64,000 nt of DNA. It comes from Rickettsiales bacterium (GTDB lineage Bacteria > Pseudomonadota > Alphaproteobacteria > Rickettsiales > UBA998). The stretch is taken from positions 511 to 64,510 of the forward strand of contig JBGTBD010000040.1 of assembly GCA_041749475.1 (NCBI GenBank), given 5' to 3'. Positions 18,220 to 61,998 of this stretch are shown one piece after another. Every line of letters starts with the position of its first letter. The stretch's first letter is position 1. The notes under the pieces were generated by a model. That model had not been told where the DNA came from, made no database searches, and saw only the letters and a list, made by a program, of their open reading frames with translations. The translations under genes and the position numbers were made by a program.

Positions 18220-18294
18220 GTCATTCCCGCGCAAGCGGGAATCCATCTATCCGGAGTCCGCTGTGCTATGGATTCCCGCTTGCGCGGGAATGGC
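18220..18294. repeat. Palindromic REP/RPE-like doublet element
   Basis: GTCATTCCCGCGCAAGCGGGAATCCA...TGGATTCCCGCTTGCGCGGGAATGGC: two inverted hairpins after atpF. Confidence 0.85.
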
Positions 18295-50763: not shown

Positions 50764-50917
50764 CCCTCTCTCTTGAGGGAGAGGGTTGCGCAGCTTAATG
50801 AACGCAAGTGAATTTAGCCGAAGCTGGGTGAGGGGGTAGCGGTTGAGTTGTTACTCCCGCGTATACCCCCTCACCCGTATTTCCAAGTGGAAATCCGGCC
50901 TCTCCCGGTGGGAGAGG
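50764..50917. repeat. Nested palindromic element (CCCTCTC/GAGAGGG type)
   Basis: CCCTCTCTCTTGAGGGAGAGGG...GGGTGAGGGGGTA...TACCCCCTCACCC...CCTCTCCCGGTGGGAGAGG. Confidence 0.8.
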
Positions 50918-51023
50918 CGACCCGTAATATCATTAAAATAGTAACGAATTGCGATTGCATCTGGGCAAACACTCTCCTATGCTGCCTTAAAACGCGCTGT
51001 CAACGTCACTTTCGGGAGGTTTC

Positions 51024-51800: not shown

Positions 51801-51828
51801 TGCTGTGGGGCGTCGTACATTCTCATCA

Positions 51829-51898
51829 TGTCGCCCCGTCGCATGACGGGGTCTGGCTTCTCCTTCAACCCGGATGCCGTCATGAAGACGGCATGACA
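51829..51898. repeat. Palindromic doublet element, copy 1 of 3
   Basis: TGTCGCCCCGTCGCATGACGGGGTCTGG...CCGGATGCCGTCATGAAGACGGCATGACA. Confidence 0.88.
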
Positions 51899-51914
51899 AA
51901 AAGGGGTTAAAAAT

Positions 51915-55959: not shown

Positions 55960-55967
55960 ACTAATGA

Positions 55968-56029
55968 TGTCACCCCGTCGTATGACGGGGTCTGGCCTTA
56001 CCGGATGCCGTCATGAAGACGGCATGACA
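55968..56029. repeat. Palindromic doublet element, copy 2 of 3
   Basis: TGTCACCCCGTCGTATGACGGGGTCTGG...CCGGATGCCGTCATGAAGACGGCATGACA. Confidence 0.88.
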
Positions 56030-56040
56030 AAGGAAATGAT

Positions 56041-57018
56041 ATGAAATCAAAACTCCTCATCTTCGGCGGTAACGGGCAGGTGGGTCGTGCGCTGAACCAG
56101 TTGGCCGAGGGCAATGTGGTGGTGCTGGGGCGTGACGAAGCGGACCTTTCCAAACCTGAATCATTACGCAAAATCATCGCCGACCTCGCTCCGACAAAAA
56201 TCATCAACGCCGCTGCCTACACAGCGGTCGATAAAGCAGAGGAAGAGGAAGCGCTCGCCACTATCATCAACGCCGAAGCCCCGGGCGTGATGGCGGAAGA
56301 GGCGGCAAAACGCGGCATTCCCTTCGTGCATTATTCCACCGATTACGTCTTCAACGGCAGTGGTGAGCGCCCATGGAAAGAAGACGACGCCACCGCGCCG
56401 CTGAACGCCTATGGCCGTAGCAAACTAGCCGGTGAGAAGGCGGTGCTGGCCGCTGGTGGCCAAGCCCTCATCTTCCGCATCTCATGGGTCTATGACGCTT
56501 ACGGCAAGAACTTCCTGAACACGATGCTGCGATTGGGCAAGGACAGAGAAACCCTAAAAGTCGTCGCCGACCAATACGGCGCGCCCTGTTACGCTCCGCA
56601 CGTGGCGCAAGCGACGCTCGCTATCCTCCAGTTTTACTCCCCCCTTGAGGGGGAGTCGAAACCGTCTTCGGTTTCGGTGGGGGGCGTTCTTGAGCAAGAA
56701 AGGCTTCCCCCCACCGGCTCCCTGCGTTCGCCGACTCCCCCTCAAGGGGGGAGTAAAAGTGAAAGTGGCATCTACCATATGGCTAACAGCGGCGTGACCA
56801 CATGGCACGAATTCGCCACCACGATCTTCGATGAAGCGAAAAAGCGCGGCATGAAGCTGGCGGTAAAGGAAGTCCTCCCCATCCCCGCCAGCGAGTATCC
56901 CACCCCCGCTACCCGTCCGCAGAATTCACGGTTGGACTGTTCCAAATTGCAGGCGACATTCGGTGTCACCTTGCCCGCATGGGAAGACGGAGTGAGGGAG
57001 GCATTGGAAACCATATGA
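56041..57018 (+). CDS. rfbD: dTDP-4-dehydrorhamnose reductase carrying an in-frame palindromic insertion
   Basis: GGNGQVG, AAYTAVDKAE, STDYVF, YGRSK, RP.NSRL. Confidence 0.95.
   Translation: MKSKLLIFGGNGQVGRALNQLAEGNVVVLGRDEADLSKPESLRKIIADLAPTKIINAAAYTAVDKAEEEEALATIINAEAPGVMAEEAAKRGIPFVHYSTDYVFNGSGERPWKEDDATAPLNAYGRSKLAGEKAVLAAGGQALIFRISWVYDAYGKNFLNTMLRLGKDRETLKVVADQYGAPCYAPHVAQATLAILQFYSPLEGESKPSSVSVGGVLEQERLPPTGSLRSPTPPQGGSKSESGIYHMANSGVTTWHEFATTIFDEAKKRGMKLAVKEVLPIPASEYPTPATRPQNSRLDCSKLQATFGVTLPAWEDGVREALETI
56632..56758. repeat. Nested palindromic element inside rfbD
   Basis: 27-bp perfect terminal inverted repeat TTTTACTCCCCCCTTGAGGGGGAGTCG / CGACTCCCCCTCAAGGGGGGAGTAAAA. Confidence 0.92.
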
Positions 57019-57824
57019 ATTTTCTAACATTTCTCAATGCGTCCGATGTGCAATTAGATTACTCCAGCTATAAGGTTCATTTGGCGACACACTCTACTGA
57101 TTCACCGCTAAATGCATTTTTGGCAGGAAAGTTTAAGGAATGGCAGGAGTTGCAAACCAAAAGAAATTTTCCATGCAAGCATATTCTTAGTCTTATACAG
57201 TATAAGAGGAATTATTGGGTCTTCGCAGGTGTATATGAGGTCATAGGCGACCCCATAAAAGTAGAAAACACAATATTATATAAATATAATACGCGCCTTT
57301 TGCCAAATCAGGAAAATTTAATCGGAAAAGTAATAGTATACCATGAGAGGAAAGGCAGGCCATCCTATTTGGTGGGGGCAAAAAATGATTTACGATTTTC
57401 TCTTGGTTATATTCTTGAGAACCAACTAACAATACGAGACTTCCCAGGGTACTATAATATCAATATTTCCCATGTGGAATTACAAACGATTATTTCTCAG
57501 CAACTGAACTCTTGGGTGGTTGCCCTCCGGCATATGAAGGGTGTCTATTTAATAACAGATTGTGCTACAGGAAAGTTATATGTTGGAAGTGCGTACGGAG
57601 ATCAGGGAATATTGAGCCGATGGTCACAGTATGTCCTTGACGGACACGGCGGTAATCAGCGTTTGAAAGTGAAAGTTGCAACTAATAATGATTATGCAGG
57701 AAATTACCAATACTCAATATTAGAAATTGCTGATCCTCATGCTCGTGATGAGTATGTTATTGAGAGAGAAAATCACTGGAAATCCGTTCTGAAATCTAGA
57801 GAATTTGGTTATAACGAGAATTGA
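57015..57824 (+). CDS. GIY-YIG nuclease domain protein (AT-rich)
   Basis: GVYLITD..TGKLYVGSAYG...RW..Y, ILE, ERE..WK, GYNEN. Confidence 0.88.
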   Translation: MNFLTFLNASDVQLDYSSYKVHLATHSTDSPLNAFLAGKFKEWQELQTKRNFPCKHILSLIQYKRNYWVFAGVYEVIGDPIKVENTILYKYNTRLLPNQENLIGKVIVYHERKGRPSYLVGAKNDLRFSLGYILENQLTIRDFPGYYNINISHVELQTIISQQLNSWVVALRHMKGVYLITDCATGKLYVGSAYGDQGILSRWSQYVLDGHGGNQRLKVKVATNNDYAGNYQYSILEIADPHARDEYVIERENHWKSVLKSREFGYNEN

Positions 57825-57828
57825 TATC

Positions 57829-58392
57829 ATGAAACTACTCGACTGCCCCATCGACGGCCTGAAGGTCATCCAGCTGCAAGTCCACGGTGACGCGCGTGGC
57901 TTTTTCGTCGAACGCTATCACCGCCAGAAACTCTCCGATATCGGACTCGACATTGATTTCGTGCAGGATAACCATTCCCGCTCCGCCCCCGGCATCCTGC
58001 GGGGCTTGCATTACCAGCACACACCGCCGCAGGGCAAACTCGTCGGCGTCACACGCGGCGCGGTATGGGATGTAGCGGTCGATATCCGCCCCGGTTCCTT
58101 CACCTACGGCCACTATCACGCGGTGGAGTTAACGGGCGAGAACGGCGTGCTGTTCTGGATTCCCCCCGGCTTCGCGCATGGGTTCTGCGTATTGGGCGAT
58201 GAACCGGCTGATATGCTCTATAAGGTCAGCGGCCTCTACAGCGCGGCGGGCGAGGGCGGTATACGCTACGACGACCCCGCACTTGCCATCGACTGGCCCC
58301 TCAAAAACCCTACTATCTCCGCGCGTGACGAAGGGCTGATGTCCTTCGCCCAATACAAATCCAACCCACCTTACTGGAACCACAGTGAGTAA
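57829..58392 (+). CDS. rfbC: dTDP-4-dehydrorhamnose 3,5-epimerase
   Basis: DARGFF, QDNHSRS, LRGLHYQ, QGKLV, GFAHGF. Confidence 0.97.
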   Translation: MKLLDCPIDGLKVIQLQVHGDARGFFVERYHRQKLSDIGLDIDFVQDNHSRSAPGILRGLHYQHTPPQGKLVGVTRGAVWDVAVDIRPGSFTYGHYHAVELTGENGVLFWIPPGFAHGFCVLGDEPADMLYKVSGLYSAAGEGGIRYDDPALAIDWPLKNPTISARDEGLMSFAQYKSNPPYWNHSE

Positions 58393-58412
58393 CGCGCATA
58401 AAATAAATATAT

Positions 58413-58541
58413 ACTCCCCCCTTGAGGGGGAGTCGAAACCGCGTCGGCGGTTTCGGTGGGGGGCTACTTTCATTTATTGCATCACGGCTTTTCCCCCCAC
58501 CCCCGCACAAGGGTTCGCCGACTCCCCCTCAAGGGGGGAGT
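58413..58541. repeat. Nested palindromic element, intergenic sibling of the rfbD insertion
   Basis: ACTCCCCCCTTGAGGGGGAGTCGAAACC...GGTTTCGGTGGGGGG...CCCCCCACC...GTTCGCCGACTCCCCCTCAAGGGGGGAGT. Confidence 0.92.
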
Positions 58542-58548
58542 GAAGATT

Positions 58549-59334
58549 ATGCACGACATTGTCGCTATCATCGTGACGTATAACAGTCCGCTCGATGGGG
58601 TGCAGAAAGCCGTGGAGAGCTTCCTCGCCACCCCGCTCGATGTGCAGTTGATGATCGTCGATAATAATTCCGGGGCGGGATATTTTTCTCATCTTCAAGC
58701 ACTCGCGAATGAACGCGTCACCATCCTCTCATCCGGCGATAATCGCGGCTTCGGTGCGGGAAATAATTTCGGGCTGCTACGCGCACCTAACTGCCGTTAC
58801 CTGCTATTCCTGAACCCGGATGTCGTCGTCCACGAAGGCACGCTTGAAACACTGACCACTTACATGGACTCCCACCCCGATGTCGGTGTATCCACCCCGA
58901 AAGTCTTCTACGAGAACGGCGATCTCCAGCCGCTGAACAAGCGTGACCCAAAGGTGGTCGACTTGTTCCTCCGCCGCTTCATGCCTCCGTTCATCCAGGA
59001 ATTGCCACTTTTCAAACGCCACATGGAGCGCTACATGATGCTCGATGTCGGCTATGAAAAAGAATGTGACGTGGAGTTTGTCACGGGATGTTTCATGTTC
59101 TTCCGCAAATCCATCCTCGACCGTATCGGCGGTTTCGACGACCGATTCTTCATGTATCTGGAGGACGCCGACATCACCCGCCGCACGCGTGAACTCGCCC
59201 GCGCGGTCTATATCCCTTCGGCCAGCATCACCCATAGCTGGCGGCGCGGCTCGCATAAAAGCATTCGCCTGCTACTGGTGATGTGCCATTCGATGACCGT
59301 CTATTTCAACAAATGGGGCTGGAAATGGTGGTGA
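58549..59334 (+). CDS. GT2 glycosyltransferase (probable rhamnosyltransferase)
   Basis: IIVTYN, VDNNS, NRGFGAGNN, LNPD, GFDDRFFMYLEDAD. Confidence 0.9.
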   Translation: MHDIVAIIVTYNSPLDGVQKAVESFLATPLDVQLMIVDNNSGAGYFSHLQALANERVTILSSGDNRGFGAGNNFGLLRAPNCRYLLFLNPDVVVHEGTLETLTTYMDSHPDVGVSTPKVFYENGDLQPLNKRDPKVVDLFLRRFMPPFIQELPLFKRHMERYMMLDVGYEKECDVEFVTGCFMFFRKSILDRIGGFDDRFFMYLEDADITRRTRELARAVYIPSASITHSWRRGSHKSIRLLLVMCHSMTVYFNKWGWKWW

Positions 59335-61923: not shown

Positions 61924-61932
61924 TGTTACATT

Positions 61933-61998
61933 TGTCACCCCGTCGCATGACGGGGTCTGGTGTGCAATACCGGATGCCGTCTCATCCGACGGCATGAC
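61933..61998. repeat. Palindromic doublet element, copy 3 of 3
   Basis: TGTCACCCCGTCGCATGACGGGGTCTGG...CCGGATGCCGTCTCATCCGACGGCATGAC between convergent genes. Confidence 0.85.

Follow-up and report, generated by a model that had tools for sequence, protein, structure and literature searches.

A hairpin-ended palindromic element carried in frame by rfbD of a Rickettsiales bacterium, and its probable relation to DUF559 nuclease cassettes

Among described systems, the Rickettsia palindromic elements (RPEs; Ogata et al. 2000/2002), whose behaviour is summarised in parts of PMC10969869 and PMC3733652, are the closest to the case presented here. [quoted passage not shown] (2013, PMC3733652) as predominant in alphaproteobacteria and as sequences that 'apparently lack a dedicated transposase'; the Vsr-like (EDxHD) homing endonucleases, e.g. 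I-Bth0305I, and the 'fractured gene' endonucleases (portions of PMC3239194 and PMC2677866); and Whalefall-1, which the relevant part of Weinberg et al. (2010, PMC2864571) proposes as a stand-alone non-coding RNA, with a whale-fall metagenome as its only known source. The nuclease family DUF559 is placed, in a section of PMC3424549, in one PD-(D/E)XK clade with Vsr, DUF2726 and a group I intron homing endonuclease. Here we report on a 127-bp palindromic element that lies in frame in the gene rfbD, in a 64,000-nucleotide stretch of the genome of a Rickettsiales bacterium (the whole of this stretch is called the window below). We consider it likely that this segment is a non-autonomous, hairpin-ended mobile element, MITE-like (miniature inverted-repeat transposable element) and RPE-like, which is translated as a loop of RfbD and is a gene-less derivative of a DUF559 cassette. 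The source genome is designated G000 and related or other genomes G001 etc., with C for contigs and L for examined loci.

The element in rfbD and its copies in the genome

The gene, the element with its parts, and the second copy in the window are located as follows.

56041..57018, + strand: coding sequence of rfbD / RmlD (dTDP-4-dehydrorhamnose reductase), 325 aa, the host of the insertion
56632..56758, + strand: whole element, 127 bp, equal to RfbD residues 198-239 (42 residues)
56636-56754, + strand: element core ACTCC...GGAGT, 119 bp
56636..56656, + strand: left terminal hairpin (hp1), 8-bp stem with a CTTGA loop, near-invariant among copies and phyla
56657..56676, + strand: second hairpin (hp2), CGAAACCG-TCTT-CGGTTTCG, variable in sequence with pairing kept
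56677..56684, + strand: G-box, GTGGGGGG, which pairs with the C-box; its columns are invariant or nearly so in the module alignment
56685..56706, + strand: variable centre, 22 bp, different from copy to copy
56707..56715, + strand: C-box, CCCCCCACC
56716..56733, + strand: right inner segment, counterpart of hp2, encoding GSLRS, kept in four of five copies in or beside genes
56734..56754, + strand: right terminal hairpin, an inverted copy of hp1, read as TPPQGGS
58413..58541, + strand: intergenic sibling copy, 129 bp, flanked by rfbC and a GT2 glycosyltransferase gene, with 81% identity over the whole element

The element runs from TTTTACTCCCCCCTTGAGGGGGAGTCG to CGACTCCCCCTCAAGGGGGGAGTAAAA (window positions 56632-56758), and its junctions are ...LAILQFYSPLEGESK and ...PPQGGSKSESGIYH. 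A first-pass annotation, made from the letters of the sequence, had described a 127-bp segment bounded by perfect inverted repeats of 27 bp, and both the sequence and our repeat search agreed with it: the inverted arms (56629-56658 and 56732-56761) are 30 nt long and 97% complementary, and their inner 27 nt are perfectly so. The 23-nt end ACTCCCCCCTTGAGGGGGAGTCG has four occurrences in the window, one at each end of either copy, and was in none of 100 dinucleotide-preserving shuffles. Folded as a single strand, the whole element gave -95.2 kcal/mol as RNA (z -10.6) and -56.2 kcal/mol as DNA (z -11.8). Each arm is composed of hp1, hp2 and a G-box, which pairs across the variable centre with the C-box belonging to the other arm; in the RNA and DNA folds alike the G-box was paired with 56707-56715. 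The element thus has the layout of two inverted two-hairpin modules with the G-box and C-box toward the centre, the same layout that is found around DUF559 open reading frames (ORFs) in other genomes. Like a MITE, it has terminal inverted repeats, is shorter than 300 bp and contains no transposase ORF.

The rfbD ORF runs unbroken through the element, of which the translation is FYSPLEGESKPSSVSVGGVLEQERLPPTGSLRSPTPPQGGSK. Its matches to Pfam PF04321 (RmlD_sub_bind, E 2.6e-101) and to NCBIfam rmlD TIGR01214 (326.6 bits, cut-off 224.05) both fell into two stretches with a break at residue 197. In comparison with Salmonella RmlD (PDB 1KBZ, E 1.3e-76), residues 5-193 of the query were aligned with 3-197 and residues 241-322 with 209-290, and 1KBZ has 11 residues at the position where RfbD of G000 has 47. 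A protein search found RfbD in 27 of 40 relatives, one of them as a contig-end fragment, and the 26 full-length orthologs were aligned. The site is empty in 25 of these 26, where the helix and SGIYH are joined by a loop of only ~8 residues (consensus AxxMxxFP); the remaining ortholog, from G011, has a related but different element in the same loop.

In the 27-sequence alignment G9, G12, Y124 and K128 are invariant columns, and RfbD of G000 has all family-invariant residues. We take Y124 and K128 to be the catalytic Tyr-x3-Lys, and G9 and G12 to be the nucleotide-binding glycines, of RmlD. An AlphaFold2 model built on this alignment (mean predicted local distance difference test score, pLDDT, 91.1; predicted template modelling score, pTM, 0.88) kept the RmlD fold, with a helix at residues 185-199, coil at 200-238 and the GIYH strand at 243-246; residues 215-236 had pLDDT below 50. 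The insert is therefore predicted by the model to be a disordered excursion from an intact RmlD fold. These results uphold the earlier statements that about 40 extra residues (42 by our count) were added in frame, that they are placed between a helix and the GIYH strand, and that the catalytic motifs remain in frame. The finding that would have spoken against an insertion, orthologs with an equally long loop, was not made.

The element in RfbD of G011 is a shorter variant (93 bp) of another subfamily, inserted at the same RfbD position. In the RfbD tree calculated with the insert columns removed, G011 fell into one group with G003 and G012 (support 95/90), neither of which has an insert, and G000 was placed outside this group, its position unresolved. 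Common ancestry of the two insertions is not supported by this tree, and two independent insertions into one RfbD loop are the more economical reading. The repeated insertion fits either a filter that retains tolerant sites or a target preference.

The source genome (2.19 Mb, 74 contigs, 55% GC) contains seven copies of the element, 113-146 bp long: four in genes, one at a gene tail and two intergenic. Besides rfbD, the genes are polA, where the copy separates the 5'-3' exonuclease part from the remainder, mtaB (TIGR01579, 457 bits) and tlyA. The TlyA copy is a clean 54-residue insertion in comparison with 7S0S (4-173 aligned with 20-190, and 228-293 with 193-257). PolA proteins of 19 relatives matched in two pieces, with the insert skipped, and those of G007, G016, G017, G022 and G026, which may carry inserts of their own, matched continuously. 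Situated between the genes for GltD-like and GltB, the fifth copy provides the last 18 codons of the GltD-like upstream ORF. The intergenic sibling at 58413..58541, also noticed in the first-pass annotation, indeed separates the stop codon of rfbC from the gene that follows. At its right end (58520-58551) there is a GGAG 8 nt upstream of the ATG of the GT2 gene (58549), and the sibling may, judging from this spacing, supply the ribosome-binding site of that gene. We also considered that the centre could be a native host loop between two separate half-elements; this was ruled out, as the copies in mtaB and tlyA share a 46-nt centre with five differences.

Spread, reading frame and pairing of the family

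The end motif was found in 18 of 41 related genomes (10 of 17 of the same family), and a reversed control pattern matched once. Public species genomes from many phyla contain the exact 21-nt end in no fewer than 126 stretches, and the matches include metagenome-assembled genomes labelled Nitrospinota, Nitrospirales, Gemmatimonadota, Latescibacterota, Acidobacteria, Gammaproteobacteria and Rickettsiales. Among the first 80 of those loci, 30 elements were complete, composed of the same parts and 92-275 bp long, and five of the genomes concerned contained from 39 to 300 modules each. BLAST with the whole element found matches in three of five relatives although the end motif was present, since the interior varies.

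The five copies that lie in or beside genes of G000 have one orientation and one frame, read as xSPLEGES, a variable hexapeptide, VGG, the variable centre, PPT, xSLRS and PTPPQGGS. Two frames, SPLEGE and TPPLRG, are open at the left end, and a TGA closes the third. For the relatives, 20 loci were picked from end-motif matches in G004, G005 and G010, which yielded 21 paired elements. Ten of these are within long open frames, each with an entry of the form (H/N/G)(S/P)PL(E/A)GE. Their nine host ORFs all have homologs in G000, where five of six insertion sites are empty and the sixth is occupied by a module of another subfamily. Alignments at six insertion sites, in which loss of host residues was looked for, were very variable. 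Thus the proposal that a distinct family acts here as RPEs do, in a tolerant loop, has gained from the empty sites in orthologs, from the predicted intact fold and from the same-frame copies in polA, mtaB and tlyA.

Two further observations were made at these loci. At L212 (G010:C12), compared with G000:C24:15659-17092, one ortholog position holds an element of the SPLEGES type in G010 and a module of the SPTGRG type in G000. At L207 and L208 (G004:C8 and G004:C10) the elements are 258 and 211 bp long, and a second hairpin element (CCTCTCCCTTTGGGAGAGG...) is nested in the centre.

Covariation was analysed in 37 short-type modules from G000, the relatives and other phyla (alignment A2). In these modules hp1 is 99.3% paired, and six of its eight pairs never vary. 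The hp2 hairpin, 87.5% paired, shows two-sided changes in seven of its eight pairs, and its covariation score was 0.361, compared with 0.107 in shuffles (0 of 500 reached the observed value) and at most 0.068 with the partner slid. The peptide encoded by hp2 is free to change (KPSSVS, NRSSDS, NRVCDS, NRMSDV). The compensatory changes in hp2 thus indicate selection on pairing within each arm and not on the peptide. Presumably the pairing is kept because the machinery that moves or copies the element needs the hairpins.

The left arm of the rfbD element matches Rfam RF01762 (Whalefall-1) over model positions 1-56 of 56 with 23.6 bits (E 3e-4), and the right arm scores 12.8 bits. In the whole genome there are 23 Whalefall-1 matches, all under the gathering score of 37 (best 36.9). 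A scan of 56400-58800 against Rfam revealed no family at gathering score, and the matches to miRNA and other families there are chance matches to a long hairpin. Most of the sub-threshold Whalefall-1 matches represent a sister two-hairpin subfamily, CCTCTCCCACCGGGAGAGG...GGTGAGGG, which is present at 50867-50920 (- strand) and at ~16 other places in G000, mostly solo or paired and intergenic, and is nearer to Whalefall-1, with scores up to 36.9 bits. In two long ORFs (G000:C2:91126-91178 and C57:22917-22969) this subfamily is read as FTSPTGRGR.

The proposed DUF559 connection and competing explanations

In G001:C131 and G029:C14 the same ends bracket an ORF for DUF559, a Vsr-like nuclease, as they would bracket the autonomous partner of a MITE, although DUF559 is not a known transposase. 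This ORF is read through the left module as SPLAGE/SPPEGE and exits as PPQGGS/PPLGGS, in the same frame as the rfbD element, and at the two loci it sits inside open frames of 1331 and 1440 codons. The same ends surround a DUF559 ORF also at G017:C43, and at G004:C4 they face outward. In the full-length relatives (G001:C131, G029:C14 and G017:C43) the DUF559 ORF lies between G-box and C-box, at the position of the variable centre. No DUF559 ORF is present between the modules of the rfbD element, and with a centre of 22 bp it could belong to the DUF559 cassettes only as a gene-less derivative. Of 15 DUF559 loci, 12 have inward-facing inverted modules on both sides, one has outward-facing modules, one is one-sided, and one (G000:C50) is at a contig end. 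DUF559 is present in 16 of the 18 motif-holding genomes versus 7 of the 23 others (odds ratio 18, Fisher p 3e-4, with kin that are not independent). What this adds to the first-pass annotation is that the element is composed of paired, inverted, Whalefall-1-like two-hairpin modules, is spread over many phyla, and has larger relatives that bear DUF559.

The cassettes at L220 (G029:C14), L222 (G033:C2), L228 (G004:C11) and L225 (G015:C12) come from four genera, lie in open frames of 1239-1440 codons and have visibly alike flanking DNA; judged from these flanks, they apparently share one site of one orthologous gene. In G000 the only DUF559 gene (C50:5730-6035) lies in frame in an inositol-monophosphatase-like ORF at the contig end. 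The cassette there (G000:C50:5644-6060) has a hairpin module upstream, and the contig stops inside the cassette.

In the mechanism that we propose, the element would have entered the RfbD loop between the helix and the GIYH strand and would be translated with rfbD as a Pro/Gly/Ser-rich, disordered surface loop of 42 residues, with the Rossmann fold and the catalytic residues predicted to stay intact. The 127-bp element would be an internally deleted, gene-less form of a cassette for DUF559 (a Vsr-like PD-(D/E)XK nuclease), and nuclease supplied in trans would drive its copying, most likely through a DNA cut in or close to the hairpin ends or the target, after which repair would bring about the copying. 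The constant frame may have two causes: the cassette's own nuclease would have to be translated inside host proteins, and selection would retain only insertions in a benign, acidic, hydrophilic frame in tolerant loops. The inserted peptide itself is probably without function. That the nuclease moves the element is our inference. More tentatively, with doubt slightly outweighing our confidence, DUF559 cassettes and their gene-less derivatives may form an undescribed cross-phylum class of nuclease-driven mobile elements that use no intron or intein and survive and are expressed through translation within host proteins; SPLEGES...PPQGGS would then be the relic of the leader and trailer of the nuclease, and Whalefall-1 the end module.

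Several observations weigh against the reading as a translated mobile element derived from a DUF559 cassette. The ends of the DUF559 cassette in G000 belong to a third subfamily and are read in the other open frame, as TPPLRGG; DUF559 was not found in two of the motif-holding genomes, G003 and G014; two of the five module-rich genomes of other phyla were without it and one had weak matches only; and the DUF559 loci inspected in G041 and G044 have ends of other subfamilies. In the portions of the literature examined, no demonstration of transposition or homing activity of DUF559 was found, and a Caulobacter DUF559 protein is interpreted in a section of PMC12907096 as a Vsr-type repair enzyme. 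No target-site duplication was seen at any of the seven copies, whose flanks are just AT- or purine-rich. The native loop of ~8 residues known from orthologs is unrecognisable in RfbD of G000, hence the insertion was not a simple clean event. Across 26 copies, stops are lacking in 59 of 156 frames, most often in the frame entered by SPLEGE (37 of 52), and survivorship therefore accounts for some of the frame constancy; translation of the insert is suggested by the conservation of the frame. No RNA data set was listed among those that contain this stretch. The assembly support, described below, comes from reads at a depth of 3-5x, with no single contig spanning the whole element, and from four runs of one study that possibly include the source sample of the assembly.

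Alternatively, the insertion could have killed rfbD, its frame being open by luck in a young pseudogene. Perfect inverted ends are in line with a possibly recent insertion, four of the six frames of the rfbD copy are stop-free, which makes an open frame not very improbable, and the native loop is missing. However, this is the sole rfbD of the genome, within an intact rfbB-rfbA-rfbD-rfbC cluster, the family-invariant residues and a confidently predicted fold (pLDDT 91) are retained, and the frame is kept in all four gene copies here and in all ten in the relatives; we regard a pseudogene as unlikely. Quite improbable, in our view, is a benefit of the element, either as an RNA (a small RNA of Whalefall-1 type, or a structure for mRNA stability or attenuation) or as a functional peptide loop in RfbD. 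The RF01762 architecture of the complete left arm, the covariation in hp2, the very stable fold and the rating of Whalefall-1 as certainly RNA in a table of Weinberg et al. (2010, part of PMC2864571) speak for it, but none of the 23 Whalefall-1 matches reaches the gathering score, copies lie in either orientation to genes, in unrelated proteins as well as between genes, the peptide is of low complexity with pLDDT below 50, the variable parts alter irrespective of it, and 25 of 26 orthologs work without the insert.

The element also resembles a REPIN or REP doublet, in that its hairpin units form an inverted doublet around a variable spacer and target-site duplication is absent; such a doublet would be moved by a RAYT transposase (TnpA-REP, Y1 HUH). 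However, the element's modules start with ACTCC and continue with GAGTCG, and have neither the GTAG nor the CGTC tag (as defined in a part of PMC3733652). Moreover, RAYT (PF01797) was not found in G000, and it is present in 2 of the 18 motif-holding genomes (G010 and G018) versus 3 of the 23 others, on which grounds it was ruled out as the mobiliser; there is very little probability left for this origin. A related insertion sequence (IS) with a DDE transposase was likewise not found. As a separate observation, G035, a genome of the same order (1.9 Mb, one contig) in which the end motif was not found, has 81 matches to the Y1 transposase (PF01797), an unusual expansion of IS200/IS605 or RAYT type.

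The least probable explanation, to which we give hardly any weight, is an assembly artefact, in which a repeat was wrongly joined into rfbD. The genome was assembled from a metagenome into 74 contigs, and short-read assemblers break or mis-join at repeats, here with no contig spanning the element. Among contigs from public runs, however, an exact 437-nt contig (X1) bridges the left junction (it covers 56353-56729) and an exact 184-nt contig (X2) from another run bridges the right one (56716-56899), and no joint that skips the element was reported. The kept frame and the related element in the same loop of another genome point in the same direction. The artefact that the first-pass annotation had named as a possible refutation was thus not borne out, and a translated, non-autonomous mobile element remains the explanation that we prefer.

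Neighbouring features and relation to known systems

Other features of the window were also noticed. An AT-rich ORF at 57015-57824 (+ strand; 38% GC versus 58-60% in rfbD and rfbC) lies exactly between the rfbD stop and rfbC. It matches PADLOC UzuA, a candidate of the Uzume defence system (E 1.1e-58, profile 16-278 of 278), has a C-terminal GIY-YIG domain (Pfam E 1.2e-5), is single-copy and has a homolog in 1 of 40 relatives; it would appear to be a defence gene that the rhamnose operon acquired recently. Another intergenic repeat, with two small hairpins, GTCACCCCGTCGCATGACGGGGTC and CCGGATGCCGTCATGAAGACGGCATGACAAA, is present at 51822-51900, 55961-56031 and 61926-61961. Its second hairpin, CCGGATGCCGTCATGAAGACGGCATGACAAA, is 100% identical at 51870 and 56001, and the copy at 56001 is just upstream of the rfbD start. 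Unrelated to the rfbD element is an inverted repeat at 18222-18292, CATTCCCGCGCAAGCGGGAATCCAT, which is perfect over 25 nt and has a 21-nt spacer.

The locus provides a clean and well-controlled case outside Rickettsia of selfish DNA in working proteins, with 25 of 26 sites empty, a confident fold and four host genes, and it links three subjects: coding palindromes of the RPE type, Whalefall-1 as an orphan 'RNA' motif, and the nucleases of the uncharacterised family DUF559. If the link to the nuclease is true, the mover of palindromic repeats without a transposase, a long-standing question, becomes testable at the bench, and the single reading frame of such repeats would be accounted for. In practice, such inserts split and inflate domain matches in annotation, and they break metagenome assemblies at contig ends. 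In the literature examined, supplements such as Additional File 1 of PMC2864571 aside, we found no published description of the element family, its spread across phyla, its possible identity with Whalefall-1 or its candidate nuclease partner. The RPE-like behaviour as such is known from Rickettsia.

Whalefall-1 and the module agree in how their parts follow one another: UA, then a C-rich/G-rich hairpin whose loop is UUG, a variable second hairpin and GGUGAGG. However, the module is the end of a dispersed DNA element that occurs in genes and in both orientations, and its scores are sub-threshold. With REP sequences, their mosaic arrays (BIMEs) and REPINs, as portrayed in portions of PMC3733652, it shares GC-rich hairpin units that are often inverted dimers and sometimes lie in loops or linkers of gene products, but the tags and the RAYT association are absent, and the unit consists of two hairpins and a G-box, with a variable centre able to hold an ORF. 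The MITEs treated in parts of PMC10969869 (QMITE1 of Coxiella, ERIC and the Anabaena MITEs) are similarly small, are bounded by terminal inverted repeats, lack a transposase of their own and now and then fuse in frame with genes; the element described here differs in the lack of target-site duplication and in that its candidate partner is a Vsr-like nuclease. Vsr-like homing endonucleases, in the cited sections, are likewise small, selfish genes for a nuclease of the Vsr fold inside host genes. Theirs, however, reside within group I introns or between split inteins, and the host product is freed of them, whereas the DUF559 cassette is neither intron nor intein and it, or its gene-less form, remains in the protein.

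The closest likeness is to the RPEs, which, according to the portions of the literature cited above, are palindromic repeats of ~100-150 bp with many in-frame insertions in unrelated housekeeping genes, a fixed frame, a conserved peptide, fold-compatible positions and no known transposase. This likeness is one of behaviour only: no sequence relationship is evident and we claim no membership. In contrast to the RPEs, which are found in one genus, the family described here occurs in many phyla, and its host in this case belongs to a different lineage with 55% GC. No protein-coding partner of RPEs is reported in the portions of the literature examined, whereas the ends of the present elements are two-hairpin modules and their larger members carry a DUF559 nuclease ORF.

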